In this document: positions 1,014 to 24,150 of the stretch, piece by piece
Position numbering within the stretch: position 1 is the first letter of the stretch
Layout: each line of letters starts with the position of its first letter
Source: Deltaproteobacteria bacterium
GTDB taxonomy: Bacteria > Bdellovibrionota > JACOXK01
Reading direction: 5' to 3'
Length of the DNA stretch: 32,000 nucleotides
Assembly: GCA_016182335.1 (NCBI GenBank)
Contig: JACOXK010000058.1
Coordinates: 1 to 32,000, forward strand
Notes under the pieces: generated by a model
Told to the model about the DNA's origin: nothing
What the model saw: only the letters and a program-made list of their open reading frames with translations
Databases searched by the model: none
Made by a program: the position numbers and the translations under genes

Positions 1014-1076
1014 AATATTACCTTTTCTCCCCTTGAATTTTATGACATGATACTTATATTAGTAGCTCATACAAAC

Positions 1077-3491
1077 ATGGATAAACAAGACAATCAACAA
1101 CAGCCTTCAGATCAGGAGCAAGATTCTTCAATTTTTCAGAGCGATCCTTATAGCCCAATTAAAACTCCTGATAACATTCCCACAAATCTTTTTATTCTGC
1201 CTTTACGAAATATTATTATTTTCCCAGGCATGATGTTTCCAGTAGTTGTTCTCAAAGAAAATCTTATTGAAACAGTAAGAAGCTCTCATTCTCAAACCCC
1301 TTATATTGGATTGATAGCCAGAAAAAAAACAGATCATGAGGATGTTCTTCCTCAAGATCTGTATGAAATGGGAATCGTCGCAAAAATTCATAAGATTATT
1401 AATCTTCCTGAAGGGGGTATTAGCCTTGTAGTACAAGGGTTGAAAAAAATGAAGGTTGAGCGCTATATTCGCACGACCCCACATCTTATAGCTAAAGTTC
1501 GTTACATTGATGATATCATTCAAGATGATGACGAAACCAAGGCTCTGTTTCGAAATGTTCAAAATCTTCTGAAAGAAATCATTTCTCTGAATAGGGATAT
1601 TTCCGAAGACATGAATCTAGTTCTTGCAAACATGACGAGTCCTCAGGTTTTAACAGATTTTATTGCTTCTCACTTCAAAATGAAACTTTTTGACAGACAG
1701 GATCTGCTTGAAACATTAGATGTCAAAGAAAGGCTTAAAAAAATAAGTTTGGTTCTATCTAAAGAACTCAACCTCTTAAAACTTGGCGACAAAATTCAAA
1801 GACAAATCAATAAAAAAATTGAAAAAAGTCAGAAGGAATTTTTTTTAAGAGAACAACTCAAGGCTATTCGAAAAGAGCTTGGCGAAGGAAAGGACGAAAA
1901 ATCTCTTGATATTGATAGATTTGAACAAGAGCTCAAAAATTTACCAGAATATGCAAAAAAAGGTATCGAAGAAGAAATCAAAAGAATGAAGTTGATGATG
2001 CCTGAGTCAGCTGAATATCATGTTATTCGAAATTATATTGAGAGCATTCTCAAGCTTCCCTGGACAAAAACTACAACAGATAATTCAAATATTGATCATG
2101 CTGAAAAGATACTCAACCGAGACCATTATGGATTGGAACGGGTCAAAGAAAGAATCCTAGAGTTTATGGCTGTACGTCAGCTTAAACCCAAAGGACATGG
2201 TCCTATTCTTTGTTTTGTAGGCCCACCAGGTGTTGGTAAAACTTCCTTAGGAAAATCCATTGCTGAATCCCTTGGAAGAAAGTTCTATCGTCTTTCGTTA
2301 GGTGGTATGCGAGATGAAGCTGAAATTAAAGGACATCGACGGACCTATATAGGTGCCATGCCTGGAAGAATCATGCAAGGAATTAAGATTTCAGCAACTA
2401 ACAATCCCGTATTTATGCTGGATGAGGTCGATAAAGTAGTGAGTTCCTATCAAGGTGACCCTGCCGCAGCTCTTCTCGAAGCGCTTGATCCAGAGCAAAA
2501 TGGAGAATTTCTAGATCACTACCTGGATATACCCTTTGATTTATCAAAAGTGATGTTCATTTGTACAGCCAATGTTTTATCAACAATTCCTTCTGCTCTG
2601 CTAGATAGAATGGAGGTCATTGATTTACCCGGATATATTCCTGAAGAAAAAATAGAGATAGCAAAGAAATATCTATTGCCAAAACAAATTGACGAAAATG
2701 GTATTCAACCTAAAAATATCAGCATCAATACAGAGACAATAAAAGATATCATTATGCATTATACTCAGGAAGCTGGGGTACGAAATCTCAATCGAGAAAT
2801 AGGCAGAATTTGCAGAAAAATAGCGACTCGTATAGCCAGAGAGTCCAATTCAAAATTATGTGTTGAGGTTAATGAGAAAAATTTGGATAAGTTTCTTGGA
2901 CCCCCAAAAGTTTTTGATGAAATAGTTCGAAGAGTTCAAAGTCCTGGGGTTGCAGTCGGGCTTGCCTGGACAAGTTATGGCGGAGAAATTTTATTCATTG
3001 AGTCGGCAAAAATGCCAGGCTCAAAATCGCTTGAAACAACTGGGCAGTTGGGGGAGGTGATGGAGGAATCTACCAAGATAGCCCTAAGTTATATCCGTTC
3101 TCACTGTTCAACATTTAAACTTAAAAAAATGCCACTTAAAGATATTGATATCCACATTCATTTTCCAGCAGGGGCAACTCCTAAAGATGGTCCTTCTGCG
3201 GGTATTGCGGTTGCAACTTCGCTTTTATCCCTATTTAAGAATAAACCGATGAAGCCCAGGTGGGCAATGACAGGAGAACTGACTCTTACGGGGCGTGTTT
3301 TGCCGGTTGGAGGAATCAAAGAAAAAGTTGTTGCAGCAAAGAGGAGTGGAATCAGAGATATTATTTTGCCCGAGAGAAATAAAAAAGACCTTGATGAAAT
3401 ACCTAAACATGTCTTGAAGGGCCTCACTTTTCACTTTGCAGAAACCTACCCGCAGGTCTACGAACTGGCGTTTTCAAAGGGAAGAGTCTAA
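1077..3491 (+). CDS. lon: ATP-dependent protease La (Lon)
   Basis: Walker A GPPGVGKTSLGKS, Walker B PVFMLDEVDK, proteolytic Ser motif PKDGPSAG, N-terminal LPLRNIIIFPGM. The ORF opens at 1047; MDKQDN... at 1077 is the more plausible start. Confidence 0.97.
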   Translation: MDKQDNQQQPSDQEQDSSIFQSDPYSPIKTPDNIPTNLFILPLRNIIIFPGMMFPVVVLKENLIETVRSSHSQTPYIGLIARKKTDHEDVLPQDLYEMGIVAKIHKIINLPEGGISLVVQGLKKMKVERYIRTTPHLIAKVRYIDDIIQDDDETKALFRNVQNLLKEIISLNRDISEDMNLVLANMTSPQVLTDFIASHFKMKLFDRQDLLETLDVKERLKKISLVLSKELNLLKLGDKIQRQINKKIEKSQKEFFLREQLKAIRKELGEGKDEKSLDIDRFEQELKNLPEYAKKGIEEEIKRMKLMMPESAEYHVIRNYIESILKLPWTKTTTDNSNIDHAEKILNRDHYGLERVKERILEFMAVRQLKPKGHGPILCFVGPPGVGKTSLGKSIAESLGRKFYRLSLGGMRDEAEIKGHRRTYIGAMPGRIMQGIKISATNNPVFMLDEVDKVVSSYQGDPAAALLEALDPEQNGEFLDHYLDIPFDLSKVMFICTANVLSTIPSALLDRMEVIDLPGYIPEEKIEIAKKYLLPKQIDENGIQPKNISINTETIKDIIMHYTQEAGVRNLNREIGRICRKIATRIARESNSKLCVEVNEKNLDKFLGPPKVFDEIVRRVQSPGVAVGLAWTSYGGEILFIESAKMPGSKSLETTGQLGEVMEESTKIALSYIRSHCSTFKLKKMPLKDIDIHIHFPAGATPKDGPSAGIAVATSLLSLFKNKPMKPRWAMTGELTLTGRVLPVGGIKEKVVAAKRSGIRDIILPERNKKDLDEIPKHVLKGLTFHFAETYPQVYELAFSKGRV

Positions 3492-5913: not shown

Positions 5914-7417
5914 AAAGATACTCATTGCAAACAGAGGAGAAATTGCAGTGAGAGTCATTCGTGCTTGTCGAGAATTAGGTATTTTATCTGTTGCGATTTA
6001 CCCATCACCAGATAGAACGTCTCTTCATGTCCGTATGGCCGACGAAGCCTACTGCCTGGGTGAAGACCCGATGGGATATCTCAATACAGAAAAAATTGTT
6101 GAAAGTGCTGTAAAATCAAATACTTGTGCCATTCATCCTGGCTATGGTTTTCTTTCTGAAAACCCAGAGTTTGCACAAGTCTGTGAGCAAGCCGGGATTG
6201 TCTTTATAGGTCCAAAACCTTCTTCAATTGAAAAAATGGGGCACAAAATTGTTGCACGAAAACTCATGCACAAAAGTGGAGTTCCTATTGTCCCAGGTTC
6301 TACAGAGCCCCTTCAATCGGCCGAACAGATTCAAAAATTAGCTCGTGAAATAGGTTTTCCACTTCTTCTTAAGCCAGCTGAGGGTGGGGGTGGTAAGGGA
6401 ATGGTTTTGGTCAGAGAAGAAAGTGAATTACAGCAGGCTTTCCAATCGTCTCGGCGAATTAGTAAATCTGCCTTTGGAAGTGATCTTGTTTATGCGGAAA
6501 AATATGTTGAACAACCCAGACATGTAGAAGTTCAAATATTGGCAGACTCTTTTGGGAAAACTATTCATCTTTTTGAAAGGGAGTGTTCTGTTCAGAGAAG
6601 GCATCAGAAGATTATTGAAGAAACACCATCAGTTTTTCTGAATGAACAGCAGAGAGAGGATATTTGTTTAAAGGCAGTAAAAGCAGCTGTGGCCATAGAT
6701 TATATAGGAGCAGGAACCGTTGAGTTCATTATTGATAAAAAACATAATTTTTACTTTATGGAAATGAACACCCGTCTTCAAGTCGAGCATCCCATTACGG
6801 AATGGGTAACAGGGGTTGATATCGTGAAGGAACAGATCAGAATTGCTCAGGGAGAAAAACTTCTTCTTGATCAAAATTCTCTTTCCCAAAAGGGGCATTC
6901 TCTTGAGTGCAGAATTTATGCAGAGGATGCAGAGAACAATTTTATGCCATCTCCTGGAAGGATTCATCATCTTGAAATGGCTCAAGGACCTTTTATTCGA
7001 GTGGATTCTGCCATTTACGAAGGCTATACTGTGCCACAGTTTTATGATCCTTTAATAGCCAAACTTTCTGTATGGTCATACAATCGATCTGCTGCTATTT
7101 CAAAAATGATATCATCTTTAAACGAATTTAAAATCTTTGGTATCAAAACAACTGAGAGATTTTTGATTGATTTACTAAACAACAATGATTTTAAAGAGGG
7201 TCGTTATGACACCCACCTTGTCGAAAATCATCTTAAGAAGAATGGTTTTTTAAAAAAAATGACAGAAGATGAAATAACTTGTGCGCTTATTGCATCTGGG
7301 ATTTGTGCTTATGAGTCCAGACATAGATCTTTGCAAGATAAGTTTTTCAATACAGATGCATCATCTTGGAAAGGGGTGAGTCGTCGTGAGTCTCTGAGAA
7401 ATTCTTATGATATTTGA
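5894..7417 (+). CDS. Acyl-CoA carboxylase biotin carboxylase subunit
   Basis: [76 protein letters not shown]. The start overlaps the CT gene. Confidence 0.94.
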
Positions 7418-9686: not shown

Positions 9687-11324
9687 TCAACGTAGGGTCG
9701 GATGATCCCTAAAAACACCGGGTTGCACCCACAATTGATCGCGCTGAATTTCCTCTAAATTTAACTGACCATTATGAAAAAGTGCTTTGAGACTTGTTAA
9801 AACTGCCTTTTCTGCAGCAACTATCTTCGATGGCGTCACTTTTCGCTTGAAATCTTCTTCAATATGAAGAGCGACATATTCAGCAATTTGAGGAGGAAGT
9901 TTAGAAATAATTAAGTTTTTATAAGCAGAGAGCTTTCCTAGAAGAACAGCGACAATGTCATCTCGTGAAAGTTGGCTTAAAAATAGAGTCAGGTCATTTT
10001 CTTCCAGAAGACTTACAAGATCAAGTGTTATAATGCTTGATTTTAATTTCATGCCAAGCGTTGTATCTGCTTTTAAAATATCGTCTGCAAGTTCGTCGGG
10101 TTTATCATGAGATTCAACTAAATTGATAAGTGCATTAAATCCGGATGTTTCGTACAGATTCAAACTTGTGAGTTGAGCAGCTCGGTGGGCCAAGCGAAAA
10201 CTTAAATACTTAAGCTCATTCCAAGGCAGTGTTTCTATTGTGGCCAGTTCCAAAGCGACTGATTTCTGATCACTATCTTTTAAATTTTTAAACACGTTAC
10301 TTCGTGTTTCAATATCGAGTTGTAAAAGAAGGAGCGCTTGGCATCGAATATCTTCACCTTTAACCAAGTGAGCTATTTTTGTTGGTTCTAAATTTTTAAG
10401 AAAATCAAAATTGGACTCAATAACTTGATTTTCTTTCAGAGACAACAAACTTTCAAGTTCTATTTCATGACGAAACTGTGTTCCTATGCGCTTTACATCG
10501 GATACGCTTAAGTGCTGCATTTTTGAAAACTCAGATGTGAGCTCCTCTGCAGAGTTATTATTAAGAACTCCCTTAAGCTCTGATCGAAGATGAGTAGGAA
10601 GTGTGATAAGGACTTGAAGTGCATGGTGTAAACCCTGCGGCGATGCTGCCCACCGTTTCAACACATTTTTTGCTGTGCTCAGATGAGAAGCAACGAGATC
10701 TGCATAATGCGCTGGGCTTTGAATTGTTAGAGAATCTCCAATCGATATCCCTTGAGGGATTTCCTGATATGAAGGCACGACAGTGGGGGAGGGTTGAGAT
10801 TCGTGTTTTAAAACTGATGGCAAAACTGTTTTTTTCCTTTGACGACGCATAAAATAGAAGATGCCCATAATAGCTGCAAGAGTGGACATAATAAGAAAAA
10901 TCAGTAAAAAATAACCTCTTAAGTTTGAGAATATAGTTGGGTGAGGCACGGCTACAAATGAGTAATTTAAATGAAGTGCTGATTGAAATGGTTGTGCTTG
11001 ATGTTCAATATATTTTTGAAGAAAATCCCTAGTTTTTTGTGGAAGTTTCTCATCAGCCAGAATATTAACATCAATACCAGAAATAACAGTAGATGTTTGT
11101 GCTGCACTACCAGATTCTTCAAATCCAGGTTCCACAATACTACGTTGAACTGTAGTTTTTGAAGAGGATTTGATGAATACATCTAAGCACAGCTGTGGAC
11201 AATGGAGTTTGAATAACTCAAGAATGACAGGTTTCAAAACGCTTTCAGGCGTTTGTCCTGCACTGAACAAAGTCGTCATCGAGAGACTCACTACTAATTG
11301 ACTTAAGAGAATGAGTTTTTTCAT
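9687..11324 (-). CDS. Membrane protein: signal peptide, extracytoplasmic domain, one TM segment and a cytoplasmic FliG-C-like domain
   Basis: N-terminal MKKLILLSQLVVSLSMTTLFSAG; TM GYFLLIFLIMSTLAAIMGIFYF followed by RRQRKK. C-terminus VSLLEENDLTLFLSQLSRDDIVAVLLGKLSAYKNLIISKLPPQIAEYVALHIEEDFKRKVTPSKIVAAEKAVLTSLKALFHNGQLNLEE resembles the FliG C-terminal pattern. Confidence 0.7.
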   Translation of the reverse strand: MKKLILLSQLVVSLSMTTLFSAGQTPESVLKPVILELFKLHCPQLCLDVFIKSSSKTTVQRSIVEPGFEESGSAAQTSTVISGIDVNILADEKLPQKTRDFLQKYIEHQAQPFQSALHLNYSFVAVPHPTIFSNLRGYFLLIFLIMSTLAAIMGIFYFMRRQRKKTVLPSVLKHESQPSPTVVPSYQEIPQGISIGDSLTIQSPAHYADLVASHLSTAKNVLKRWAASPQGLHHALQVLITLPTHLRSELKGVLNNNSAEELTSEFSKMQHLSVSDVKRIGTQFRHEIELESLLSLKENQVIESNFDFLKNLEPTKIAHLVKGEDIRCQALLLLQLDIETRSNVFKNLKDSDQKSVALELATIETLPWNELKYLSFRLAHRAAQLTSLNLYETSGFNALINLVESHDKPDELADDILKADTTLGMKLKSSIITLDLVSLLEENDLTLFLSQLSRDDIVAVLLGKLSAYKNLIISKLPPQIAEYVALHIEEDFKRKVTPSKIVAAEKAVLTSLKALFHNGQLNLEEIQRDQLWVQPGVFRDHPTLR

Positions 11325-11337: not shown

Positions 11338-11982
11338 TTAATAAATTTTTAACGTTACCCTTCTGTTTATATTTCTGTATTCCTCAGCATCTGCAACTTC
11401 AGCTTTCTCTTCAAGTTTTTTAGGTCTCGTATGGGCAAATCCCCTTAATTGAATTCGATTTTCATCAATGCCGTGAAAACGCAAAAAATTAAGGAACTCC
11501 ATAGCCCTGTAGGCTGACAATTCCCAATTAGATGGAAATTTAAGTGTATGAATGGGTACATTATCTGTATGTCCCTCAACAATAAACGCCCATTTGTGAT
11601 CAATTGTTTTTAACTCCGAAACAAATGTCAAAATATGTGGCTTAGCCTCTTCCAAGAGGGCACTTTCTCCGGATTGAAATAAGAGAGAATGACTAAAATC
11701 AATTTCCAGAGACTCTTGTCCAATGCTTGTTGAAATCTTGGATTCCAAATGATTTGAGATGATAATAGAGTCAATCTGTTTTTTTAAATCGGCCAAAGAA
11801 TATTTAGGTTTTTTTTTGAAGTAATTCGTGAGCGATTCAAACCGATATGTGCTCATCACTGACATGGAGAGGAGAAATGCAAAGAAAACATAGAGATTTG
11901 TGATGAGATCTGAATAAGAAAGCAGCCATGGTGACTCATCATTCCGTGCAAACATGCTGTTTTGTACCAGTTCTTCAAGCAT
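11338..11982 (-). CDS. MotB-type stator protein (TM + OmpA/MotB peptidoglycan-binding domain)
   Basis: N-terminal WLLSYSDLITNLYVFFAFLLSMS, matching the MotB TM with conserved Asp. OmpA-like VEGHTDNVPI...NWELSAYRAMEFLNFL...RNINRRVTLKI. Confidence 0.9.
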   Translation of the reverse strand: MLEELVQNSMFARNDESPWLLSYSDLITNLYVFFAFLLSMSVMSTYRFESLTNYFKKKPKYSLADLKKQIDSIIISNHLESKISTSIGQESLEIDFSHSLLFQSGESALLEEAKPHILTFVSELKTIDHKWAFIVEGHTDNVPIHTLKFPSNWELSAYRAMEFLNFLRFHGIDENRIQLRGFAHTRPKKLEEKAEVADAEEYRNINRRVTLKIY

Positions 11983-12804
11983 TTAGATTTCCAAGCGGAT
12001 TGTCGTCGTCCCCATTTTTGGATGCGAAACAATTCGAGAGGAGCTTTCTGTGGCTGTTATGAAAGCAGCAAGATTTTCTTTTAATATCGGTCCATATACC
12101 TGGTTTTTAATAAGCTCTAAAGCTTCAATCATCATGGCATGAGATCTAGATTCCAGTTCCACATGATTGTTCACGTGACGAATGACTGGGAAGTAAAAAG
12201 CATAACTTGCAAGCAATCCGTACAAAGTCGTTAGCAACGCAAGCGCCATGCCAGCCCCAATCTGACTAAAATCGTCCATATTCTGTAACAGTGAAACCAA
12301 TCCTAACACTGTTCCCATCATGCCAAGAGCAGGTGTTATTTTTGACGAAAAATCAAACACCGAGATTTCTTTGAGGTCCTGAAGTCGCTTTGCATGCCAT
12401 TTATTTTTCAAAATACTTTTCAGTTCATCGGCATTATAATTTCCATTAAAAGTATGAATGCCTTCTCTTAAAAAGAGAGGCATATCTTGTGTGGGCGCAG
12501 CGATACGTCCACTTCGCTGATACTCTTTGGAACAATCCACAAGATGAGAAATGAGGCGTTGCTGTGATACTTTTTCAGGAGAAAAAAATACTTTAATGAG
12601 TCGACCCCAGGCCTTTAAAATATCTGAAAGTCCAAAGCTGTAGAGAACAATGAAAATGTGCCCTACAACTACAAATAAGAAGCTTGGTAGGTTAAACAAG
12701 CCTTTATATTCACTCGATCTTGATTGCATGATAAACAACAGGATCCACAAAAAACCGATAAGACCTATAAGGCTTGCGCATTTTCTCACCCACTGATAGT
12801 TCAT
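11983..12804 (-). CDS. MotA/TolQ/ExbB-family proton channel protein (MotA-like)
   Basis: Four hydrophobic segments; SSKITPALGMMGTVLGLVSLLQNMDDFSQIGAGMALALLTTLYGLLAS. Directly abuts the MotB-like gene. Confidence 0.88.
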   Translation of the reverse strand: MNYQWVRKCASLIGLIGFLWILLFIMQSRSSEYKGLFNLPSFLFVVVGHIFIVLYSFGLSDILKAWGRLIKVFFSPEKVSQQRLISHLVDCSKEYQRSGRIAAPTQDMPLFLREGIHTFNGNYNADELKSILKNKWHAKRLQDLKEISVFDFSSKITPALGMMGTVLGLVSLLQNMDDFSQIGAGMALALLTTLYGLLASYAFYFPVIRHVNNHVELESRSHAMMIEALELIKNQVYGPILKENLAAFITATESSSRIVSHPKMGTTTIRLEI

Positions 12805-13430
12805 GATTTTGTTTTTGGTGAAAGAGTTGTAGGTGAAGACGCAGGGAGGCGAGAAATAGCCTGACGAATAATAGTATTAGCAGGATCTTCTTTAAGAACC
12901 AAAGACCATGATTCTCTGGCTAAATCATACATTCCTACCTTGGATGCAACGGTCCCGCGCAAGGAGAGAAGCTTCGTATCGCTTGGATAGGATTCAACAA
13001 GGGATTCCAATGTTACGAGTGCTAGTTCATAGTCTTTTTTACGAAAATGCTCTTTTACTTTCGCCAAACCTAAGAGATAACTTTGTCTGGCTAAAGATTG
13101 GCCAGATAAGGCAACCACATCTTGACCTTGAATCTGAGAATTGTCGTCACCAGATGATGGTATAGTTTGTAACCCATCAGTGTGAGAACTTTTAAGCTCT
13201 GCAAGAGTGTAGCGCACTAAAGTCGATTCACTATTTTCTCCAAGTGCTATTTCAATAGCATTCAAACCGAAGGACCGGCGAATGGTAATGGGTGATTTCG
13301 ATGACTGAGCTGTGTCTATGGTAAATGGATTGGATATTTCAGGGGAAGAGTGTTTGGAAATTTTGCGCATGGAAGCACATCCAACAATAAGAGACAAACA
13401 GATAATGACAAAAAGTTTTTTTCTATTCAT
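12801..13430 (-). CDS. TPR-like lipoprotein
   Basis: Lipobox LSLIVGC at the N-terminus; TPR-like YELALVTLESLVESYPSDTKLLSLRGTVASKVGMYDLARESWSLVLKEDP. Overlaps the MotA-like start by 4 nt. Confidence 0.7.
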   Translation of the reverse strand: MNRKKLFVIICLSLIVGCASMRKISKHSSPEISNPFTIDTAQSSKSPITIRRSFGLNAIEIALGENSESTLVRYTLAELKSSHTDGLQTIPSSGDDNSQIQGQDVVALSGQSLARQSYLLGLAKVKEHFRKKDYELALVTLESLVESYPSDTKLLSLRGTVASKVGMYDLARESWSLVLKEDPANTIIRQAISRLPASSPTTLSPKTKS

Positions 13431-13433: not shown

Positions 13434-14591
13434 TTACCACCTCATATTGATATTGAATGCAATATCTAAACAAAAACCAGAAACTTTTTTCGATTGTTTA
13501 TCAGACGAAAATTGTATTTGATTGCCAATGAGTTGAATCTTTTCAGAGCTCAGCATGGCATCTGACGGAAATAAGTAATTGATGTTGGCAGAAATTCCAA
13601 ATTTCTTTCCAATATCGAGCAAAAAACCTGGACCTAAAACAAAAGACTGATAGTTGTTTGTAAGAAGTGGGCCGCCGCCTACTGTTATATATTTTCTAAA
13701 TTTTTCTCCGCCCAGATTCATGAGGAGTTTTAACTCAAGAAGCCCCCCAGCATTGAGAAGAATGTCTTTATTGCTGGAATCTGAGAGTGGCTCAGTAAAT
13801 CCAGAGAGAATAATGCCAAAGTGATCAATAAACCCTCCCATGTACTCGAGTAGAGAGAAACTCACACTTGGATAATTCACATGATTTTCAAATCCAGGTA
13901 ATAGGAAAAAACCAGGGCTTACGGCGAGCCGATATTTAGCAAGGATGTTCACCGAGTCCGAAGGCCGTTTTGTGACAGAATCTTGTGATAGCAGCTGTCG
14001 CTCTGGATCGAGCGAAGAATATTTATCGCTCCAAATGACTTCTCCCTTAATAGCATCAAAAATGGCAACGCTCAAAACGATTTCATGTGGGGTATAATGG
14101 AATGTGCTTTCCAGGAAATAGCGAGTTCCCAAACTATGAGAGAGAGATTGCAATTCTTCATTTTTTTGCACACCCTGTTGCACAATAAGGTCATTAGCAT
14201 CCGTTGTGACAAGAGTGCGAAAGCAGCTCATACATTTGATAGATTTAATGGAGACTTTTTCAATGAGGGCCTGATCGATTCTATCTCGAAGAATATCGCG
14301 AAACTTAGGTTGGATATCACCCTGGAGATTGATTTTATACTGGCTTAATTTTTGAATACGTAAGTTTGAACTCGAAAGATCTGTAGCAAATCTCTCAACA
14401 AGAGAGTCCAGTACAGAGTAGAAATCAATTTTTCCATCAAGCGTGCTTGCATATTCCGCATTGACGTGATTTGAAAAAAACACAACACAGTTTAATCCAA
14501 GAAAAATAACGAGAAATCGCAGTAGAACAAAACGATTTTGCAACACAAAACGACCTTCACCCAACGCTAACTTTTTTTGATAAGATGTCAA
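13434..14591 (-). CDS. Secreted protein with CsgG/FlgO-like N-terminal domain and outer-membrane barrel-like C-terminal region
   Basis: Signal-like VLLRFLVIFLGLNCVVFFSNHVNA; LVERFATDLSSSNLRI...LSHSLGTRYFLESTFHYTPHEIVLSVAIFDAIKGEVIWSD; the Gly/aromatic-alternating C-terminal half resembles a beta-barrel. Confidence 0.55.
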   Translation of the reverse strand: MTSYQKKLALGEGRFVLQNRFVLLRFLVIFLGLNCVVFFSNHVNAEYASTLDGKIDFYSVLDSLVERFATDLSSSNLRIQKLSQYKINLQGDIQPKFRDILRDRIDQALIEKVSIKSIKCMSCFRTLVTTDANDLIVQQGVQKNEELQSLSHSLGTRYFLESTFHYTPHEIVLSVAIFDAIKGEVIWSDKYSSLDPERQLLSQDSVTKRPSDSVNILAKYRLAVSPGFFLLPGFENHVNYPSVSFSLLEYMGGFIDHFGIILSGFTEPLSDSSNKDILLNAGGLLELKLLMNLGGEKFRKYITVGGGPLLTNNYQSFVLGPGFLLDIGKKFGISANINYLFPSDAMLSSEKIQLIGNQIQFSSDKQSKKVSGFCLDIAFNINMRW

Positions 14592-14598: not shown

Positions 14599-15639
14599 TC
14601 AGGGTAACAGTATGTGATAGCGGATATCCACTTGGTCACCAGCAGCCACATGAGACCTTTTGAGGAAAAACAACTCCTGTGTTGACTCGTTATAATGCCA
14701 CTCACTTGGGTTTGCTTTAAGACCATTAAGATAAACCTCAATAGAACCGCGTTGTGCAGCATAGGTTAAAACTTTACGAGTCATATGCTCAAAAAGTATT
14801 TGTATTATTTTATTTATGACTTGTTTTGAATCTTGCAAGAGATCACACAATTCAAGACTTATGCCAGAAGTTTGACTTACAAATTCAGCAAGAGTTGTTG
14901 CTCGTCGATACTCCAAGTTATTGCATTGATCACTTCCCTCTTTGAAAATGAGGGCAATAGGTTGGAACAGTGCTTTTGATTTTAATGTCTGCATAGAGGC
15001 TACAATGTGATCGACTGGAGTTGTTCCTTCGTCATCCGCGTTAGATATAAAAATTGGAAAGAAATGGGTATTTCCTTCTCGAAGGAATCCGCTTTTCATG
15101 AGGGTTACCAACTTCTCAAGTGGGAAATTTGATGCTTCTCCCCCAGTAAAGTTTAAAGCTCCAAGAGTTTCTGATAATTTATTGAGTCCACTCACCGTGA
15201 AAGCGTTATTCGCAAAAATATCCTCTCCCCATGGAGTACTATCATGGGATGTTATCAACCGAAGTTTGAAAGAAAGCTTTGGTCGAAGATGGTGATATTC
15301 TGGAGGGTCCATGAGAGAGGCTAAGAGAAGATGACTTGATTCTTTGAGGGCTTGAATAAAAGGTGACATTTTTTTCTTGGCATGAAGAATAAATGCTATA
15401 TCAAGGTTTCCCTGTGGCACTTCGTGAATGAAACCATCCAACCACAGCTGTGGCAGGGATGTGGCGGGAGGTTCTAATAATGGGGGATTGTCAGGTTCGT
15501 AATGTGGGCTAACAGGCGCAGGTAACGGTTTCTCTTTTTGCTTAGGTGCAATAAATTCAGGAGCTCCACAATGAAGAAAGAGTGTTGCCACAAGAAGGGA
15601 TATAAATTTATGGATTTTGAGGATCTTGTTTGACACCAT
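14599..15639 (-). CDS. Lipoprotein, VWA-like with degenerate metal site (paralog 1)
   Basis: Start at MVSNKILKIHKFISLLVATLFLHC (lipobox). LDIAFILHAKKKMSPF sits at the position of the MIDAS DxSxS in the neighbours. C-terminal domain SEWHYNESTQELFFLKRSHVAAGDQVDIRYH is shared with the paralogs. The track ORF opens at 15777. Confidence 0.6.
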   Translation of the reverse strand: MVSNKILKIHKFISLLVATLFLHCGAPEFIAPKQKEKPLPAPVSPHYEPDNPPLLEPPATSLPQLWLDGFIHEVPQGNLDIAFILHAKKKMSPFIQALKESSHLLLASLMDPPEYHHLRPKLSFKLRLITSHDSTPWGEDIFANNAFTVSGLNKLSETLGALNFTGGEASNFPLEKLVTLMKSGFLREGNTHFFPIFISNADDEGTTPVDHIVASMQTLKSKALFQPIALIFKEGSDQCNNLEYRRATTLAEFVSQTSGISLELCDLLQDSKQVINKIIQILFEHMTRKVLTYAAQRGSIEVYLNGLKANPSEWHYNESTQELFFLKRSHVAAGDQVDIRYHILLP

Positions 15640-16846
15640 ACAACACTGTAATTTTTCCACCTTGCGGCACTTTGGGTTTGTTCGTAAGGATGATTTCATT
15701 TTTTTGAGTATCATAAGTAAAGTCACGTCCCATAAGCAGTGGATAATAATTATAAAGAACTTTAAAAGACTTGCCATCGAAAGTATGGGGAATTTTTTTA
15801 AGAATAATTCTTTTTGTGTAGGATAAAGAGAGTTGTGCTACATCACTCAATGTATTCTTTTTCAAAAGCTCACATAAATCCAGTCGATGTCCATAGAAAT
15901 GTTGGTGACTGAGTTGTTCTAATTTATCTGATGTCTTGGTTAAACTGTAAGGACAAGTCTGAATATTCATGCGAAATAGCGCTGTAAATACGCTTAAGTA
16001 CGGTGGTCTATAAATTTTATGAATTTGTGACAAAAAATGAGAGGTTGCTATGTCATGAGAAAGCTCGTCCGAACTTATGAAGAAAAATACACTGAGCGCA
16101 TCTTCCTCTCGAAAATCGGCAGAGTTATGTAATAACTCCAGTGTTTTAGAATAAGAAAGAATATGAGGTTGGCCTTGATATCCAAGCTGTGACATGAATT
16201 GAGGAAAGACGGCAAAATCTCGTGCCGTACTTATAAAGTTTTTCCCACTCACAGAAATGAGACGTGCTTCATCAGAAGGCATGAATCCTATCTTATATTG
16301 AAGATGAGAGAGATTGTTTGATAAAAATTCTGGAGCAAATTTTGTGCTTGCTAAGACAAGATCAGAGTGAATGTCTTCCATAGGTTCCGAGGTATCAACG
16401 ACAAAAAGTATTGAGAGTTTTCCAGAAGGAAGGCCGTAATAAAAATCTTCCTCATAAAGTTGAAAATCTGGAGGAGTTGGCCCACCAGGTTGTGTAGGAT
16501 CTGGAAGAGGAATGGGCACTGGATCAGGATTGCCTCCTCCCCCGCCCCCTGGAGTTCCACCTTCACCGGGATTGGTACCTGGTGCGCTCCCCCCTCCTGA
16601 ACCGCCATTAGGAGGAGATCCCGGAGTGCCACCGCCTCCTGGGTTGGTGTCAGGTGAACCATTACTATCTCCACCAGAACCAGCGTCTGGAGGGACAATT
16701 TTTCCATCCGGTGTTTTATTTTCAACATAGAGATTAAAGACTCGGCGAGAGCTTGAACCGCAAGATAAATTGAAAACTAACGGTGCAACAATGGCTAATG
16801 GAACTATTACTGACTTCACGGTTGAAGGTAACCTTAAGTCATTCAT
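15608..16846 (-). CDS. Lipoprotein, VWA-like domain with Gly/Pro-rich linker (paralog 2)
   Basis: Lipobox LVFNLSC; linker of G/P/N residues; LSILFVVDTSEPMEDIHSDLVLAS; C-terminal DFTYDTQKNEIILTNKPKVPQGGKITVLY. GTG at 16819 is an alternative start. Confidence 0.7.
   Translation of the reverse strand: MNDLRLPSTVKSVIVPLAIVAPLVFNLSCGSSSRRVFNLYVENKTPDGKIVPPDAGSGGDSNGSPDTNPGGGGTPGSPPNGGSGGGSAPGTNPGEGGTPGGGGGGNPDPVPIPLPDPTQPGGPTPPDFQLYEEDFYYGLPSGKLSILFVVDTSEPMEDIHSDLVLASTKFAPEFLSNNLSHLQYKIGFMPSDEARLISVSGKNFISTARDFAVFPQFMSQLGYQGQPHILSYSKTLELLHNSADFREEDALSVFFFISSDELSHDIATSHFLSQIHKIYRPPYLSVFTALFRMNIQTCPYSLTKTSDKLEQLSHQHFYGHRLDLCELLKKNTLSDVAQLSLSYTKRIILKKIPHTFDGKSFKVLYNYYPLLMGRDFTYDTQKNEIILTNKPKVPQGGKITVLYGVKQDPQNP
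16481..16694 (-). repeat. Low-complexity segment encoding a Gly/Pro/Asn-rich linker
   Basis: Encodes PDAGSGGDSNGSPDTNPGGGGTPGSPPNGGSGGGSAPGTNPGEGGTPGGGGGGNPDPVP... Confidence 0.85.
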
Positions 16847-16858
16847 TCAGGTAATTTT

Positions 16859-16887
16859 ATTACAAAAGCTCTTCGTATCATTGTCAA
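16859..16887 (-). promoter_or_regulatory. Putative sigma70-type promoter for the minus-strand operon
   Basis: On the minus strand: TTGACA (16887-16882), 17-nt spacer, TGTAAT (16864-16859), just upstream of the 16846 start. Confidence 0.5.
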
Positions 16888-16891
16888 ATAA

Positions 16892-16919
16892 TTGGAGCTT
16901 TGTTAGATCATAATATAAT
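16892..16919 (+). promoter_or_regulatory. Putative sigma70-type promoter for the plus-strand operon
   Basis: TTGGAG (16892-16897), 16-nt spacer, TATAAT (16914-16919), ahead of the GTG start at 16936. Confidence 0.45.
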
Positions 16920-16935
16920 TAGGTATCGTTGTTCA

Positions 16936-18012
16936 GTGAAAAAAATTATCATTTTAGTTGCTTTTGCATCTCTGACATCGTGCGAAAAAACGGGTCTTAA
17001 GTACGAAACTTCTTTAGAGGATGATCCTTCACGTATTGTTTTTGTTGATCCTCGAATTATTTCCTCCCATAAACCTCCATGGATGCAACCGTATAGACGC
17101 GTCATTGAGCGTGATACTGCGCCTGTAAATCAACCGCCTTCGCGCGGAATTTTTACTAACGTGGTGGATAAGTATGAGAAGAAAAAAAATCATGAAGAGG
17201 CTGATATTTTATGGGTTATTGATAATTCGTGCAGCATGGCTGAAGAACGTGACAAAGTTTCACAAAATCTCGATGCTTTTATGAGGGACTTTAAATTGAG
17301 TCATGTTGATTTTCATATGGGTGTTATTTCAACACACACCCATGATGCTCTTTTTTATGGAGCCCCACCCGTGCTTCTTTCAAATGATCCAGAATTAGAG
17401 CGCAGATTTTCAGAACGTGTTCGGATGCCGCAAGTATGCGGTTTTTCTGCTGCTTTGCATGCTGCCCATTTGGCGCTGAGCGAGCCGCGAATTTCTGGAT
17501 ATAACAAAGATTTTTTACGATCAGAAGCGCATCTCATTATTATTATCATTTCTGACGCAGATGAAGACTATAAAATGAGCAGCTCTGAATATCTTAGTTT
17601 TTTCCAGTCACTTAAAGCAAGTGAACCGCATAAAGTCGTCATTAACTCCATCGTTGGAGATTCTCCGAGTGGTTGTTCATCTGCTGGCGGGAATGCAGAA
17701 CCTGGGTTGCAATACATTGAATTAACACAAAGTACTCGAGGTTTTTTTGAAATCATTTGCAGTAACAACTTTAAAGAAAGCATGAACAATATTGGCCGTA
17801 ATCTCGATAAATATATCAACTCTTATCCACTGACTCATATTCCTTCAATTCGATATCCTCTTGTTGTTACAATCAATGGTCGTGTCGTGGAGCGACACCC
17901 AATACATGGCTGGGTGTACAATGCCGAACTCAATCTTATTTTATTTGAGGGAGATATTAAACCTATTGTTGGAGATAAAATTGAAATCGCTTACCTTCAT
18001 GAAGAAAATTAG
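16936..18012 (+). CDS. Lipoprotein with VWA domain, intact MIDAS (paralog 3)
   Basis: GTG start gives VKKIIILVAFASLTSC (lipobox). ADILWVIDNSCSMAEERDKVSQNLDAF carries DxSxS; C-terminal HGWVYNAELNLILFEGDIKPIVGDKIEIAYLHEEN. The track ORF begins at TTG 16900. Confidence 0.82.
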   Translation: MKKIIILVAFASLTSCEKTGLKYETSLEDDPSRIVFVDPRIISSHKPPWMQPYRRVIERDTAPVNQPPSRGIFTNVVDKYEKKKNHEEADILWVIDNSCSMAEERDKVSQNLDAFMRDFKLSHVDFHMGVISTHTHDALFYGAPPVLLSNDPELERRFSERVRMPQVCGFSAALHAAHLALSEPRISGYNKDFLRSEAHLIIIIISDADEDYKMSSSEYLSFFQSLKASEPHKVVINSIVGDSPSGCSSAGGNAEPGLQYIELTQSTRGFFEIICSNNFKESMNNIGRNLDKYINSYPLTHIPSIRYPLVVTINGRVVERHPIHGWVYNAELNLILFEGDIKPIVGDKIEIAYLHEEN

Positions 18013-19033
18013 TCTTCTTATAAGCTTATTTCTAGTGGGCTTGACCTCTCAAGGATTAGCACTGGTTTGGTGGGGCGAAGAAATAACCTCACTTAAATAC
18101 ATTATGCCCATCCAATATTTTGTACGAAATGAAGATGTTTTTTACATGGGGCTTCAAAACTTTGGTATTGATCGTGTCATTTACAATAATTACAAACTTT
18201 CTCGTGATAAAGTTTTTAGATTCTCTGGTATCATGGACCCTTCTGTGAAATTAAACTTCCTTCTTAAAGGCGATATGCTCATAGTTGGAGGCATTTACGA
18301 CGGTTTTTTAGCACTCGATACAAAATCGGATTATCCATCACCCACTTCAAAGAGACATGATCTTGTTTTTAAGCCCAATGAAAATACAATTGTTTATTCT
18401 TCTCTTCTCAAATCCCTCTTATGGAAAGGTCAACTTGTACTTCTTACGGCTGATCAGGTTATTCTGGGTAGTCTGCAGAACCCACTTAAGTTTAACGTCA
18501 ATGCGAGCGTTGGTTTAGCGCCAAATTATCCTTTGCAACCCAATGATTGGAAAGAATTTTGGGCTACCGATATGGCGCTCTATGGCAATTATTTGTACGT
18601 TCTTCTTGCGCATGAGAAAACTCCGCAGATTGCATACCTTAACCTTTCACAGCCACTGGAAAGTCTTAAAGTAAATTATGTTCCCCTCAATGTTTCAGAA
18701 TATTATCTTAAATCCTTAGCGGTTAGTGATAGTAGATTATATATAACTCAGAATAAGACACTTCATAGTTTTGTCATTGATGAAGAAGGCATGCCGACCG
18801 TGGAGTGGTCGCATACCCAGAAGCACTTCATAGAAACTGTAACTACGTTTTCGATGGGTATTATTCTCTCGTTCTTTGAGGCTGGACTTGCGTTCTTTGA
18901 AAATCAAGACCTTACAAAAGAACAGGCCATTATTTTTCCTCCAAAAACTTGGGAGCAGGTTGAGGTTGTGGATAATCTTTTGTTTGGTTCAGCAGGAGAA
19001 GATGGTTTTTATGTATATCAAAAATATAATTAA
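17999..19033 (+). CDS. Secreted protein of unknown function, beta-propeller-like
   Basis: Internal ATG at 17999 gives MKKISLLISLFLVGLTSQGLALVWW (signal peptide) and overlaps the preceding stop by 14 nt. Repeated hydrophobic strands such as KGDMLIVGGIYDGFLALD, YGNYLYVLLAHE, SDSRLYITQNKTLHSFVI. Confidence 0.6.
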   Translation: MKKISLLISLFLVGLTSQGLALVWWGEEITSLKYIMPIQYFVRNEDVFYMGLQNFGIDRVIYNNYKLSRDKVFRFSGIMDPSVKLNFLLKGDMLIVGGIYDGFLALDTKSDYPSPTSKRHDLVFKPNENTIVYSSLLKSLLWKGQLVLLTADQVILGSLQNPLKFNVNASVGLAPNYPLQPNDWKEFWATDMALYGNYLYVLLAHEKTPQIAYLNLSQPLESLKVNYVPLNVSEYYLKSLAVSDSRLYITQNKTLHSFVIDEEGMPTVEWSHTQKHFIETVTTFSMGIILSFFEAGLAFFENQDLTKEQAIIFPPKTWEQVEVVDNLLFGSAGEDGFYVYQKYN

Positions 19034-19667
19034 GACATTGATATTTTTCTCTTTGTGGGGATGGACTGGAACTATCTTGGGTGAGTCGCCTTCGCAAAGC
19101 ACTTGGCTGGATTACGAAATCCGTCTTAAAGCCGTGTACAACCAAAAATATGAGCACCATCATCGACATGAGCTCTCCACTTTTTCATCACTGTATTTTA
19201 GAAATGATCTTAATTTATCATATGGTTTTGGAGCTGATTATGCCTATCATTTCACTCCTACTTTAAGTTGGGAAGCGGCTCATTTTCTTTACTTAAATCA
19301 AGTTGAGACAATACTGCGCCAGGATATAAGAAATAAAACAGGTTTGATACCGGATGTAGAAGAAAATGAATTCTTTGTTACTTCTTCAATCATGTTTCAT
19401 CCTGCGTACGGCAAATTGGCTTTCTTTGGAAGGCACATTGCGTATTTTGATCTCTATGTTGTTGCGGGTGGAGGCATTCGAAAACTCTTGAACCTTTCTC
19501 AACTTAAATCTGCTTTTTCGTTTGGTGCAGGTTTCAGATGCTATCTGAGTCACAAACTTACTCTCAAGATTGATGCCAGAGACATGTTGTTTCAGGAAGA
19601 ACATCAATCCGGTGCATCTATTATTCATTCTTTTACACCTGTTTTAGGATTGAGTTTACTTCTATGA
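19011..19667 (+). CDS. Outer-membrane beta-barrel domain protein (myxobacterial/Bdellovibrio-type)
   Basis: Signal MYIKNIIKTLIFFSLWGWTGTILG, then RLKAVYNQKYEHHHRHELSTFSS...LSYGFGADYAYHFTPTLSWEAAHFLYL...FDLYVVAGGGI, resembling the delta-proteobacterial outer-membrane barrel family. The track ORF opens at 18876. Confidence 0.7.
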   Translation: MYIKNIIKTLIFFSLWGWTGTILGESPSQSTWLDYEIRLKAVYNQKYEHHHRHELSTFSSLYFRNDLNLSYGFGADYAYHFTPTLSWEAAHFLYLNQVETILRQDIRNKTGLIPDVEENEFFVTSSIMFHPAYGKLAFFGRHIAYFDLYVVAGGGIRKLLNLSQLKSAFSFGAGFRCYLSHKLTLKIDARDMLFQEEHQSGASIIHSFTPVLGLSLLL

Positions 19668-20734
19668 AGTTAAAACTCTGTGTCATTACATATTTCATAT
19701 TTACTTTTGCCAATGCAGACTTTCCCCGAATGGCGGATGCATGGCGTGCCTATGCTAACCAAGATTACATTCAATCTTTGCAACAGTTGTACAGGGTCCG
19801 CAGCATTGCTCAAGAAAGAGTGCTTGCTGAAACCTTTTATTTGGAAGGACTTTTGGCTTACCGATTGGGTTATAGTTTGAGGTTGGCAGCCATTTATCAG
19901 ACTTATGAAGTGCAGTTCATGCATAAGCTCTCTTCATTGCCAAATAATATAAAAAAAGATGTTTGCTTGTATTGGGTGAGGCTCTCAAGTCTTCTAGCAG
20001 ATGTTTATAAAAGTATGCTGGTGGTACAATCTGTAGAATTGTTCCAGTCTTTGTCTTCGACTGAAAGTGCACTTCGCACGCCTTCTGGATCTGGGGCTTA
20101 CACGTGGCCTCTGATACTAGCTACTGAGAAAGAAGTACAGGAGGTATGGTTGGATGAATTGGGTGCTGATACCATAATCACTATTTCTGAAAAGAAAGAA
20201 AAGGGGGAGAGTCTTACTCCTGAAATTATTTTTGTTCGTTTAAGCGATGCAGTTTCACGCTCTCTTGTTTTTTATGAACAAAAAATTCTAGAGAAGGATT
20301 TTTTTTATAATCGCCTGCGTTTGCTCTTTTTAGATTATAAATTGGATAGAGGAGAAGGAGGAGAGGAGTTTTTGGTTGTATCTCAAAAAGCTTATCTGAA
20401 ACTCTATGGAGAAAGTCGGTTTTCAATGCTCCAGTCACTCATTCAACTTCGGCTGAGTAGAATCAACTCTAAACTTAAGACATTAAGGGCCATGAGTTTT
20501 AAGAAAAGTGTTACTGCAGTGACAAGCCAAAACTACAAAACTGATCAACCCAATATAGAGCATGTTATTGTTCTAGGCATGATTGAAACAAAGCCTATTC
20601 GCAAGGAAGCAGTGAGGCAAGGGGTGTCTTCTTTTTTCTCGGCTGATCCTGTACCCTATATACCTGGTGCCGGTCCGGAGAGTTGGAATGAGAAAATTGC
20701 AGAGTCCATCCATGACAAAAAAATCTCAGATTGA
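19664..20734 (+). CDS. Secreted/periplasmic helical repeat (TPR-like) protein
   Basis: Signal MKLKLCVITYFIFTFANA; helical repeats WRAYANQDYIQSLQQLYRVRSIAQERVLAETFYLEGLLAYRLGY; overlaps the previous gene by 4 nt. Confidence 0.55.
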   Translation: MKLKLCVITYFIFTFANADFPRMADAWRAYANQDYIQSLQQLYRVRSIAQERVLAETFYLEGLLAYRLGYSLRLAAIYQTYEVQFMHKLSSLPNNIKKDVCLYWVRLSSLLADVYKSMLVVQSVELFQSLSSTESALRTPSGSGAYTWPLILATEKEVQEVWLDELGADTIITISEKKEKGESLTPEIIFVRLSDAVSRSLVFYEQKILEKDFFYNRLRLLFLDYKLDRGEGGEEFLVVSQKAYLKLYGESRFSMLQSLIQLRLSRINSKLKTLRAMSFKKSVTAVTSQNYKTDQPNIEHVIVLGMIETKPIRKEAVRQGVSSFFSADPVPYIPGAGPESWNEKIAESIHDKKISD

Positions 20735-21539
20735 GTTTCGGCTGCTTGTCTTCAACAAGTCTTCTCTGATTAAAAAACTATCTTTTCGAACGGAAGAACT
20801 CATTCTTGGTTCGATAGCTCAATCTCAGGTTAATTTAACTAAGGCAGATGGTACTGTTCTTTTAGAAGGTAGATTCTACTGGAAGTCGAGGTACGTTCTG
20901 ATTTTTGAAAAACACTTCATGCAATCAGAAGAAATACAAGCAACTTTACTCCAGAATCACAATGCAAGTGCTGCCACGTTTGAGTATCAGAATGATGAGA
21001 TGGTAATACAGGTGAGATCTTTGCTCATAGGAGAACCGCCTGATTCTCTGTCAATACGACCTACCTTCACTCAAAATCTGTCTGTTCCAACGATAAAAAA
21101 ACAAGTTCATAAATCAGTATTTGTGACTGCAATGATAGTTCTTGTTGTGCAACTGAGCTTAATAGTAAAACTCAATGAGCGCAAAAACGTGAGATTAGAG
21201 GGGCATGAACAACAAATCTCTAAAGTTTTAGCCCCCACGGTCAACAAACCGTTCATGCCACGTATCCCAGGGCCTAAGCATTATGAAAAAATTATCTTAA
21301 AGAACAAAAAGGATATCGAGTTTTGTCAGAAAAACTTCGATTTTGAGGATGGCCCCGTTCAGTTCAAAGTGCTTATTAATCCTATGGGTGGAGTCTTTTC
21401 TGTCGATGTTTTGTCTTCCACACTTGGTGTGGAAATAATGGAGTGCTTGAATGCGAGAATTAAATCATGGTTGTTTCCCCCTATTGAAAATATTTCAAAA
21501 ACATTATTTTTTGCTGTGAATTTTAAAAAGGAATCTTGA
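20712..21539 (+). CDS. Single-TM protein with AgmX/PglI (GltG/GltJ)-type C-terminal domain and possible degenerate FHA-like N-terminus
   Basis: TM SVFVTAMIVLVVQLSLIV; C-terminus DIEFCQKNFDFEDGPVQFKVLINPMGGVFSVDVLSSTLGVEIMECLNARIKSWLFPPIEN matches the AgmX/TonB-like pattern. Start MTKKSQIEFRLLVFN at 20712; the track ORF opens at 20667. Confidence 0.7.
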   Translation: MTKKSQIEFRLLVFNKSSLIKKLSFRTEELILGSIAQSQVNLTKADGTVLLEGRFYWKSRYVLIFEKHFMQSEEIQATLLQNHNASAATFEYQNDEMVIQVRSLLIGEPPDSLSIRPTFTQNLSVPTIKKQVHKSVFVTAMIVLVVQLSLIVKLNERKNVRLEGHEQQISKVLAPTVNKPFMPRIPGPKHYEKIILKNKKDIEFCQKNFDFEDGPVQFKVLINPMGGVFSVDVLSSTLGVEIMECLNARIKSWLFPPIENISKTLFFAVNFKKES

Positions 21540-23778: not shown

Positions 23779-24150
23779 AATAATCTCCCCCTTAGGAACA
23801 CCACACCAGTTCCCTTTCATTTGAGAGCCGTTAAAAAAAATTGCTTGATGAGAAGTGAATATCCGCCTTATAATTTTAACACTAGCATATGATGAGAGAG
23901 TGTCGCAAGTATATTCAGTTTTAAGTTGTTTAAAGTTTTTGCAATAGTGTTTTAATTTTAGTTAATAGGTATAAGAAAATATACAATATATATTAAATTA
24001 ATATATCAAATGAGTTATAGAATTAATGAAAATAATTTTCATTTATCGTTTATAATTTAGACAAATTATATTTTTATTAAACATGGTGAGGCGCTATGAA
24101 AAATGTTGATTTATTTACATTATTGTAGTTATTTGGACATTCTTGCTTTT

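Follow-up and report, generated by a model that had tools for sequence, protein, structure and literature searches.

A membrane-anchored FliG-like protein, putatively a natural FliF-FliG fusion, encoded in one cassette with MotA- and MotB-like stator subunits

The DNA analysed here (the window) comprises 32,000 nt of contig JACOXK010000058.1 (assembly GCA_016182335.1, Bdellovibrionota, lineage JACOXK01). At positions 9687..11324 of its minus strand it harbours an open reading frame (ORF) with an ATG start for a protein of 545 aa, which is identical to the unannotated protein HYS98_03190 of a groundwater-type metagenome-assembled genome (MAG), listed at NCBI as 'Deltaproteobacteria bacterium'. 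According to the best-supported reading, this protein is a natural fusion of a minimal FliF-type membrane anchor, consisting of one domain similar to ring-building motif 3 (RBM3) and one transmembrane (TM) helix, with a complete FliG, and it receives the force delivered by a MotAB stator of its own. The gene is the last in an operon of five, where it follows the genes for a 385-aa secreted protein, a 209-aa lipoprotein with tetratricopeptide repeats (TPR), MotA and MotB; neighbouring genes either overlap slightly or are 0-13 nt apart. As an earlier note on this DNA had pointed out, the MotA- and MotB-like genes are located immediately upstream on the same strand, the MotB gene with a gap of 13 nt and the MotA gene with a gap of 0 nt.

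The order FliF(RBM3-like)-TM-FliG(N-M-C) in one chain is seen in an AlphaFold2 (AF2) model of the protein, which was built on a 29-sequence family alignment and has a mean predicted local distance difference test (pLDDT) score of 80.6. The model begins with a short helix at the N-terminus, which is followed by an alpha-beta-beta-alpha-beta domain at residues 26-124, a hydrophobic helix at 132-163, disorder at 165-201 and an all-helical region at 204-531. Thus, the signal peptide, the extracytoplasmic domain, the single TM segment, the helical region and the FliG-C-like end which the earlier note had read from the letters of this ORF are all in place. This domain plan is not a chance pattern, as it emerges from three independent methods alike and is shared by over 100 clusters of sequences at 50% identity.

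FliG is normally a soluble protein bound to FliF, which forms the MS ring. The proposal that the C-terminal region of the 545-aa protein resembles FliG-C was borne out by Pfam, which detected FliG_C at residues 416-523 (E 3.6e-10, 40.5 bits at a cut-off of 23.3) and in addition FliG_M at residues 314-382 (E 1.7e-7, 31.8 bits at a cut-off of 25). With phmmer, residues 306-522 were aligned to the M and C domains of FliG from A. aeolicus (3hjl, 8e-5) and T. maritima (1lkv, 7e-4), and the significant sequence matches of the protein in the PDB were FliG chains only. The Arm-like helical region suggested ahead of FliG-C corresponds to the all-helical part of the AF2 model. When this part was compared by Foldseek with full-length FliG, 3hjl was matched with E 7.9e-9 over 324 columns and FliG of the Salmonella C ring over 308-325 columns, and the predicted fold is of the FliG type. 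Because the alignments span entire FliG chains, FliG_N, FliG_M and FliG_C are all represented, and not FliG_C alone. Residues 204-304 (10413..10715, minus strand like all parts of the gene) are predicted to form a FliG_N-like helical domain with a long connecting helix ahead of FliG_M, and Pfam matches to FliG_N were found at the equivalent position in two relatives, P0039 and P0062, of the type B subfamily described below. Residues 305-390 (10155..10412), which comprise the Pfam FliG_M match and are covered by the alignments to 3hjl and 1lkv, correspond to a FliG_M-like domain, and residues 391-531 (9732..10154) to a FliG_C-like domain, in which the torque helix PPQIAEYVALHIEEDF was located by alignment.

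In size and score the protein is far from a conventional FliG. It reaches 34.7 bits with the FliG equivalog model TIGR00207, for which the cut-off is 226.7, and its 545 aa, its signal-type N-terminus and its TM helix at 137-159 do not correspond to the soluble, FliF-bound form of about 330 aa. In the alignments to 3hjl and 1lkv, the EHPQR motif that serves for docking of FliM is lost: EDIR stands in the place of EHPQ, and a Glu is found opposite the distal Arg. The sole residue of this motif which survives, E324, is invariant in 64 relatives. The loss of the motif fits the absence of fliM and fliN near the gene. Weak Pfam matches to MgtE_N were also obtained with the window protein.

An exhaustive profile search with the family retrieved 488 proteins with E values up to 1e-3. 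Approximately 125 of the best 150 among them have a length of 520-990 aa, a hydrophobic N-terminus, a periplasmic region, one strong TM segment, FliG_M and FliG_C, and both FliG domains were detected in each of the 64 members that were scanned. Two subfamilies can be distinguished. Type A proteins, to which Silvanigrellales MAG proteins belong, contain two tandem modules with a C-x3-C pair before the TM segment; the window protein contains a single module of this kind, and so do its two orthologues. Type B proteins, including one from an Elusimicrobia MAG, are without Cys and are recognizable by the motifs 'LPGLP' and '...D..RGD.v.V....FP'. Close orthologues of the window protein were limited to two in the databases searched, P0002 (40% identity) and P0003 (36%). 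A search with the window protein alone yielded one 40% relative only, a word-indexed protein search with the 29-sequence family alignment returned just the query, and a profile scan of genome contigs with the three close orthologues led to the known MAG contig and to no new locus, while six loci were obtained in a metagenome scan with type B sequences. In the database, the gene for P0002 (L001 81-1772) is called from position 132 and therefore lacks a signal sequence; the in-frame start at 81 restores a protein of 563 aa. The Lon gene of the window (1047-3491) has two relatives at 66-69% identity, followed by proteins of about 50-55% over many phyla. Since just two relatives of Lon exceed 60% identity, the lineage appears to be poorly sampled.

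The second important part of the protein is the domain between the N-terminus and the TM helix (residues 24-130; 10935..11255). In a separate AF2 model of residues 22-130 (pLDDT 89, predicted template modelling score 0.74), it shows the order alpha-beta-beta-alpha-beta as in a ring-building motif. Its two cysteines (C42 and C46, 11187-11201) form the C-x3-C pair, which is invariant in all 37 aligned periplasmic modules of type A. The relationship to FliF is a transitive one. By hhalign, the window-type module was aligned to the type B domain over 106 columns with a probability of 94.8% (E 4.9e-8). Pfam YscJ_FliF_C, which corresponds to the RBM3 region of FliF, was in turn matched by 18 of the 64 family members scanned (best E 7.2e-8), with P0010 exceeding the cut-off (24.8 bits at 23.8). 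The matches inspected singly (P0009, P0010, P0014 and P0062) were all from type B proteins and all within the periplasmic region. In a search of the PDB with the type B profile, the top match was the FliF segment 'ENRGDLLNVLSMPF' ('RGD..V...F'), at an E value of only 0.34. Based on these sequence comparisons, the N-domain of the window protein is likely FliF RBM3-like. In flagellar FliF, RBM1 and RBM2 house the export gate. These two motifs, which make up the region homologous to PrgK, are absent from the window protein, where a single domain of 110 aa lies between the signal sequence and the TM helix and Pfam gave no match to YscJ_FliF. Thus, of the kinship to periplasmic domains of FliF or secretins that had been put forward for this part, the link to FliF RBM3 stands in its transitive form, while secretins, RBM1 and RBM2 drop out.

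The N-terminus resembles a signal peptide (residues 1-23, 11256..11324), as had been suggested: MKK is followed by a hydrophobic stretch at 4-20 (hydropathy peak at 4-22) and by SAG/Q. It could instead remain uncleaved and function as a first membrane anchor, as in FliF; in either case the following domain would be periplasmic. The proposed single TM segment with a basic stop-transfer sequence was recovered as well, namely as the helix G137-M159, which lies within the AF2 helix 132-163, and the positive-inside cluster RRQRKK (R160-K165) at its cytoplasmic side (together 10830..10916). One Lys or Arg is present just before this helix and six are present directly after it. A linker rich in Pro, Ser and Gln (residues 166-203, 10716..10829), predicted to be disordered (pLDDT below 50 at 165-201), connects it to the FliG part. 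In two independent relatives without motAB, a gene for a DsbA/thioredoxin-like protein is located directly upstream of the fusion gene (L004 8922-9902 and L017 203-1210); between them, these two DsbA-like genes share 38% identity. This suggests a dedicated helper for disulfide formation. We propose a topology with the N-domain in the periplasm and the FliG part in the cytoplasm right under the membrane, because of the signal-type N-terminus, the excess of Lys and Arg after the TM helix, the invariant Cys pair of the N-domain and the DsbA-like neighbours.

The stator genes preceding the fusion gene encode proteins of the flagellar type. The MotB-like subunit (11338..11982, minus strand) was identified by Pfam MotB_plug and OmpA, by NCBIfam models for MotD/MotB/MotS and by PDB alignments; it possesses a plug, a TM segment with the conserved channel Asp (YSDLIT) and an OmpA-like peptidoglycan-binding domain. 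The MotA-like subunit (11983..12804, minus strand) matches Pfam MotA_ExbB and has four TM segments, a cytoplasmic insertion between TM2 and TM3, and the Pro and Thr residues of TM3/TM4. Among the NCBIfam models it fits PomA with 3.9e-34 and TolQ with merely 1e-3, and its top match in the PDB is PomA of V. alginolyticus (8bri, 4e-25). With 118 bits at a PomA equivalog cut-off of 341, it stays below the NCBIfam equivalog thresholds and is a divergent member of this group. The Na+ site of Vibrio PomA includes the threonines 158, 185 and 186 as well as the LLTTLYG motif. Since Thr at these three positions, the TM Pro and the LLTTLYG motif are retained in the window MotA, the stator may be sodium-driven. 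On the side of the fusion, the C-terminal domains of both subfamilies were aligned with canonical FliGs. In this comparison, the acidic pair equivalent to D288/D289 of E. coli FliG is kept in all subfamilies, and the EED of the window protein is shifted by an insertion of 2-3 residues. The MotB proteins of type B loci (L006 14575-15570, L009 4864-5982 and L011 5259-6356) have a length of 330-370 aa and carry C-terminal TPR repeats beyond the OmpA-like domain; the MotB of the window clade measures 214 aa, and here the TPR protein is encoded separately.

The two other members of the cassette are presumed to act outside the cytoplasm. The TPR lipoprotein (12801..13430, minus strand) has the lipobox IVGC and weak TPR matches in Pfam, and homologues are found in L002, L018 and L009. 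The 385-aa secreted protein (13434..14591, minus strand) consists of an N-terminal alpha/beta domain, which is FlgO/LpoB-like in relatives at scores below the cut-offs, and a beta-rich C-terminal part ending with ...NMRW. It has homologues in both subfamilies: a FlgO-like partner of 370-430 aa is the steadiest neighbour of the fusion gene and is homologous across type A and type B. Pfam FlgO was matched by the N-terminal domain of three of seven partners (best E 4.2e-4, 20.6 bits, under the cut-off of 22.6), and a weak match to LpoB was obtained too. In L018 and the window clade, the last residue of the partner is aromatic, as it is in outer-membrane barrels, and the 385-aa protein is a probable outer-membrane protein. 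The complete set of FlgO-like protein, TPR protein, MotA, MotB and fusion protein, in varying gene order, is present in seven of the 11 informative loci, i.e. those with enough flanking sequence, the window included: the window, L002, L018, a Silvanigrellales contig, L006 (an Elusimicrobia MAG), L009 and L011. Its carriers are Elusimicrobia, Silvanigrellales and unclassified lineages. Other flagellar Pfam families were found neither in the 32-kb window nor in the retrieved neighbourhoods (within about 10 kb, approximately 15 loci). A scan of the operon for promoters and terminators gave counts at chance level. In the type B cassette of L009, the gene directly after motB (5991-7070) encodes an outer-membrane protein of the PorP/SprF family, which is linked to type IX secretion system (T9SS) cargo and gliding adhesins.

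Beyond the cassette, seven further genes (14599..21539, on both strands in the window) stay beside it in three close relatives, as revealed by blastp synteny with L001 (2555-10516) and L002 (5300-12579), even though the orientation of the five-gene cassette towards this block is inverted. They can be linked to the cassette only tentatively. The products of 392, 412, 370, 390, 263, 356 and 290 aa have no Pfam matches. Two of them are lipoproteins with DxSxS-type motifs (VVDTSEPM and VIDNSCSM), a long linker rich in Gly and Pro is present in one, and the product of 263 aa resembles a small barrel of the outer membrane. Von Willebrand factor A domains, guessed from the DxSxS motifs, were confirmed neither by Pfam nor by a PDB profile search. 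At 16351-16730, the stretch of the 412-aa lipoprotein gene that encodes its Gly/Pro-rich part is overlapped by two ORFs, one of 125 aa in another frame of the same strand and one of 72 aa in antisense; both look like by-products of low-complexity sequence and not like genes. Further along, a subtilase (22045-23820, minus strand) combines a fervidolysin-type prodomain with a C-terminal match to CUB (22.5 bits at a cut-off of 21.4), a domain mostly known from animals. The chromosomal context is confirmed by a conventional cluster for cell division and the cell wall, with murC, murB, ddl, ftsQ, ftsA and ftsZ, together with a family 4 glycosyltransferase (24286-31914, minus strand). In two unrelated loci, genes of the type IV pilus/type II secretion type are located 1.5-5 kb from the fusion gene (pilM, pilO, pilP and a secretin in L017, 5147-11180; PilX_N, T2SSF and T2SSE in L006, 16090-21334), possibly by coincidence.

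The domain homologies, the predicted topology features, the conservation of the cassette and the conserved key residues can be stated as observations. Beyond them, we infer that MotA contacts FliG, that the fusion forms a ring and rotates, that it is coupled to the outer membrane, and what its function may be. As an explanation of the whole, we consider it somewhat better than an even bet that a natural FliF-FliG fusion forms a ring which is turned by the co-transcribed MotAB and belongs to a non-flagellar machine of the cell envelope. In such a machine, a MotA5B2-type stator would be fixed to peptidoglycan by the OmpA-like domain of MotB, and ions would pass through the channel with the MotB Asp. 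The cytoplasmic loops of MotA would then push the acidic torque helix in the FliG_C domain of the fusion. Neighbouring fusion subunits would probably join to form a ring turning in the inner membrane. As known from the MS and C rings, it would be held together by RBM-like domains outside and by stacking of ARM_M and ARM_C inside. With the EHPQR motif lost, a FliM/FliN switch would be missing, and the machine would likewise do without type III export gate, rod, hook and filament. Its periplasmic face may pass work to the TPR lipoprotein and the FlgO-like outer-membrane protein, resulting in an ion-driven machine that spans the envelope. Movement of surface adhesins (gliding) or a task in envelope maintenance are candidate outputs. 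Hints in this respect may come from the uncharacterized lipoproteins kept beside the cassette in the window clade, from the PorP/SprF gene of L009 and from the type IV pilus genes close to two loci. A ring-shaped rotor is the most likely form of the fusion, since a domain of the ring-building type is present outside, polymerising FliG ARM domains are present inside, and engineered FliF-FliG fusions form rings (PMC6079021, PMC10941966).

Several observations weigh against this proposal. Pfam provided no direct FliF match for the window protein, and a profile of the type A N-domain searched against PDB sequences found nothing, no FliF included. The RBM3-like assignment is therefore indirect and runs via the type B domain. 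In Foldseek comparisons of the N-domain, OsmC-like folds rank over the PrgK and FliF rings, all with template modelling scores of about 0.35-0.5, and the E values for FliF RBM3 (5e-3 to 2e-2) are no better than those for unrelated alpha/beta folds. The idea of the earlier note that the MS-ring anchor and the torque-receiving element are merged in one polypeptide is thus favoured by the complete FliG part and by the RBM3-like domain recognized through the sister subfamily, and it lacks a direct match to FliF. At the predicted rotor-stator interface, too, not all charged residues are conserved. In the torque helix of the window protein, the equivalent of R281 of E. coli FliG is Q, that of K264 is L, and R297 is not retained; the window clade as a whole does not conserve the equivalents of R281 and K264, and in the MotA loop just one basic and one acidic residue are left. 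PomA E96 corresponds to E98 of E. coli, the partner of R281. At the position of R281, Arg is found in type B, Glu or Asp in most type A proteins and Gln in the window clade, and at the position of E96 the cassette MotAs have Glu in type B and Pro or Ser in the window clade. The two residues are thus kept together in type B and lost together in the window clade, which speaks for the interface but is suggestive only, as it is based on two clades. Also in its favour, a basic residue at the position of PomA K89 is present in the MotA of the window, L002 and L006. On the opposing side, four relatives (L012 among them) have no adjacent motAB, the host genome of the window is known here from its 32 kb alone, and at least one of the carrier lineages, the Silvanigrellales, also has a complete flagellum (PMC7386786, PMC12321486). 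Because they are flagellated, a role of the cassette in association with the flagellum has to be considered.

It is conceivable that the MotAB proteins energise the tethered FliG protein without rotation, in the way ExbBD energises TonB and TolQR energises TolA, so that single subunits or small oligomers in place of a ring would be pushed or remodelled and would thereby pull the TPR lipoprotein and the outer-membrane partner. The cassette has a Tol-Pal-like logic, comprising a stator, a partner anchored in the inner membrane, a TPR protein with a weak ybgF-type match and an OmpA-like domain; moreover, ring formation by the fusion is deduced, and the Foldseek comparison of the N-domain failed to separate rings from other folds. 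We nevertheless regard such a force transducer as unlikely, given that MotA is of the flagellar type with its cytoplasmic insertion, that all three FliG domains, which polymerise into a ring in known systems, are kept, that the domain in the periplasm is akin to a ring-building motif, and that 110 aa are too short to bridge the periplasm alone. Rather improbable in our view is that the protein serves an ordinary flagellar motor as an extra ring, a stator scaffold or a stator-binding brake or decoy, and this only in cells that build flagella. The flagellated Silvanigrellales would fit such an accessory, and its partners of the FlgO-like and TPR types bring to mind the scaffolds H-ring, PflA/B, FlcA and MotX (PMC11870540). 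However, the cassette brings its own MotA and MotB and lies amid housekeeping and envelope genes with no flagellar gene nearby, and a TM-tethered FliG without the FliM-binding motif is unfit for the C ring.

That the genes are a functionless relic, comparable to stray flagellar leftovers of non-motile lineages, seems hardly credible. A FliF-FliG(M) fusion among the leftover flagellar genes of chlamydiae is a precedent (10.1101/023564), and the divergence from FliG is strong, but the ORFs are intact, the operon is tight, catalytic and structural key residues are retained, and the cassette is conserved across phyla. Equally remote is a reversed topology with the ARM-like helical part in the periplasm, as in the E-ring proteins FlgY and FlbB, which have an N-terminal anchor and a periplasmic MgtE_N/ARM domain (PMC11870540, PMC13023049). 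The weak MgtE_N matches of the window protein recall this arrangement. Against it, a signal-type N-terminus and one later TM helix place the C-terminal part inside the cell, in agreement with the distribution of Lys and Arg around this helix, the Cys pair and the DsbA-like neighbours, and the match covers a full three-domain FliG and not a single ARM head. With respect to the preferred explanation, the rotor ring of an envelope machine, a more far-reaching version can be formulated, namely a free-standing ion-driven rotary motor made of the fusion ring, PomAB-type stators and the TPR and FlgO-like partners, which would make no flagellum and would not depend on a type III export apparatus. We put this forward tentatively, as a possibility short of probable. 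If true, such a motor would be a descendant of a rotor-stator module apart from export machinery, or a flagellar motor core that has been re-used, for example for moving surface adhesins.

With the flagellar proteins FliG and FliF, the window protein shares all three ARM-like domains (N, M and C), an acidic pair in the torque helix, the predicted place under the membrane next to a MotA/PomA-type stator and an RBM3-related anchor. It differs in being one polypeptide instead of two, with one RBM-like domain, a lost EHPQR motif and a score far under the FliG equivalog cut-off, and in lacking nearby genes for FliM/FliN, export gate, rod or hook. The nearest natural counterpart is the chlamydial FliF-FliG fusion of about 330 aa, which contains a FliG_M-like segment only and is thought to work with the type III secretion system (Bergeron 2016, PeerJ; bioRxiv 10.1101/023564). 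Judged by its published description, it likewise has a signal sequence, a reduced RBM-type periplasmic region, a TM segment and a cytoplasmic FliG-like part in the absence of a full flagellum; it is not provided with a dedicated MotAB, in contrast to the window protein, which comprises the whole of FliG N-M-C and has a stator cassette of its own. Full-length FliF-FliG fusions engineered in Salmonella and Vibrio assemble rings (PMC6079021, PMC10941966, PMC11481574), and thus a covalent link between ring anchor and FliG is workable. These, however, are laboratory constructs with a complete FliF (RBM1-3) within a normal flagellum.

The partners of the fusion are reminiscent of PomAB/MotAB stators and their periplasmic scaffolds, i.e. 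the T and H rings of Vibrio (MotX, MotY, FlgO, FlgP and FlgT), PflA/PflB of Campylobacter and FlcA of spirochaetes, because of the PomA-like MotA, the MotB with plug, Asp and OmpA-like domain, and the TPR-type and FlgO-like proteins; here, the similarity of the partners is weak, the genes lie outside a flagellar locus and the PomA score remains far below the equivalog cut-off. Like the other 5:2 motors (Tol-Pal, ExbBD-TonB, AglRQS-Glt gliding, GldLM/T9SS and Zorya), the cassette combines an ion-driven stator of the inner membrane powering the outer envelope with TPR and OmpA-like helpers, but its A subunit is of the flagellar and not of the TolQ/ExbB type, and its partner resembles FliG and not TonB, TolA, GldM or GltG. 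Membership in Tol-Pal or ExbBD-TonB was rejected on the basis of the TolQ and PomA scores and the FliG-like partner. The Zorya anti-phage system, tried with PADLOC, was also rejected, since ZorB was matched via general MotB homology, ZorA with E 0.003 only, MotA has just 273 aa, and ZorC and ZorD are missing. In open-access papers and preprints, we found no prior description of the cassette or the fusion, the chlamydial and the engineered fusions being the nearest, and a stator phylogeny makes no mention of such a cassette (PMC12505986). All parts have flagellar homologues; the architecture, the gene set and the context are new.

These findings have implications for the annotation of genomes and for the evolution of the flagellar motor. 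Members of the family are now annotated as 'FliG' or 'hypothetical', which can mislead the inference of motility from genomes. The cassette suggests an undescribed, stripped-down rotary or force-transmitting machine. To our knowledge, FliG and MotAB, the rotor-stator pair of the flagellum, have been described from no other machine, and how this pair joined the type III export core is an old question. If our interpretation is true, the cassette would be a new addition to the growing set of 5:2 ion-driven motors powering envelope processes, and with five genes and one rotor protein it would offer a simpler system for torque generation. Last but not least, it would mean that a torque-generating module can exist and be selected alone, without export gate, rod, switch and filament.

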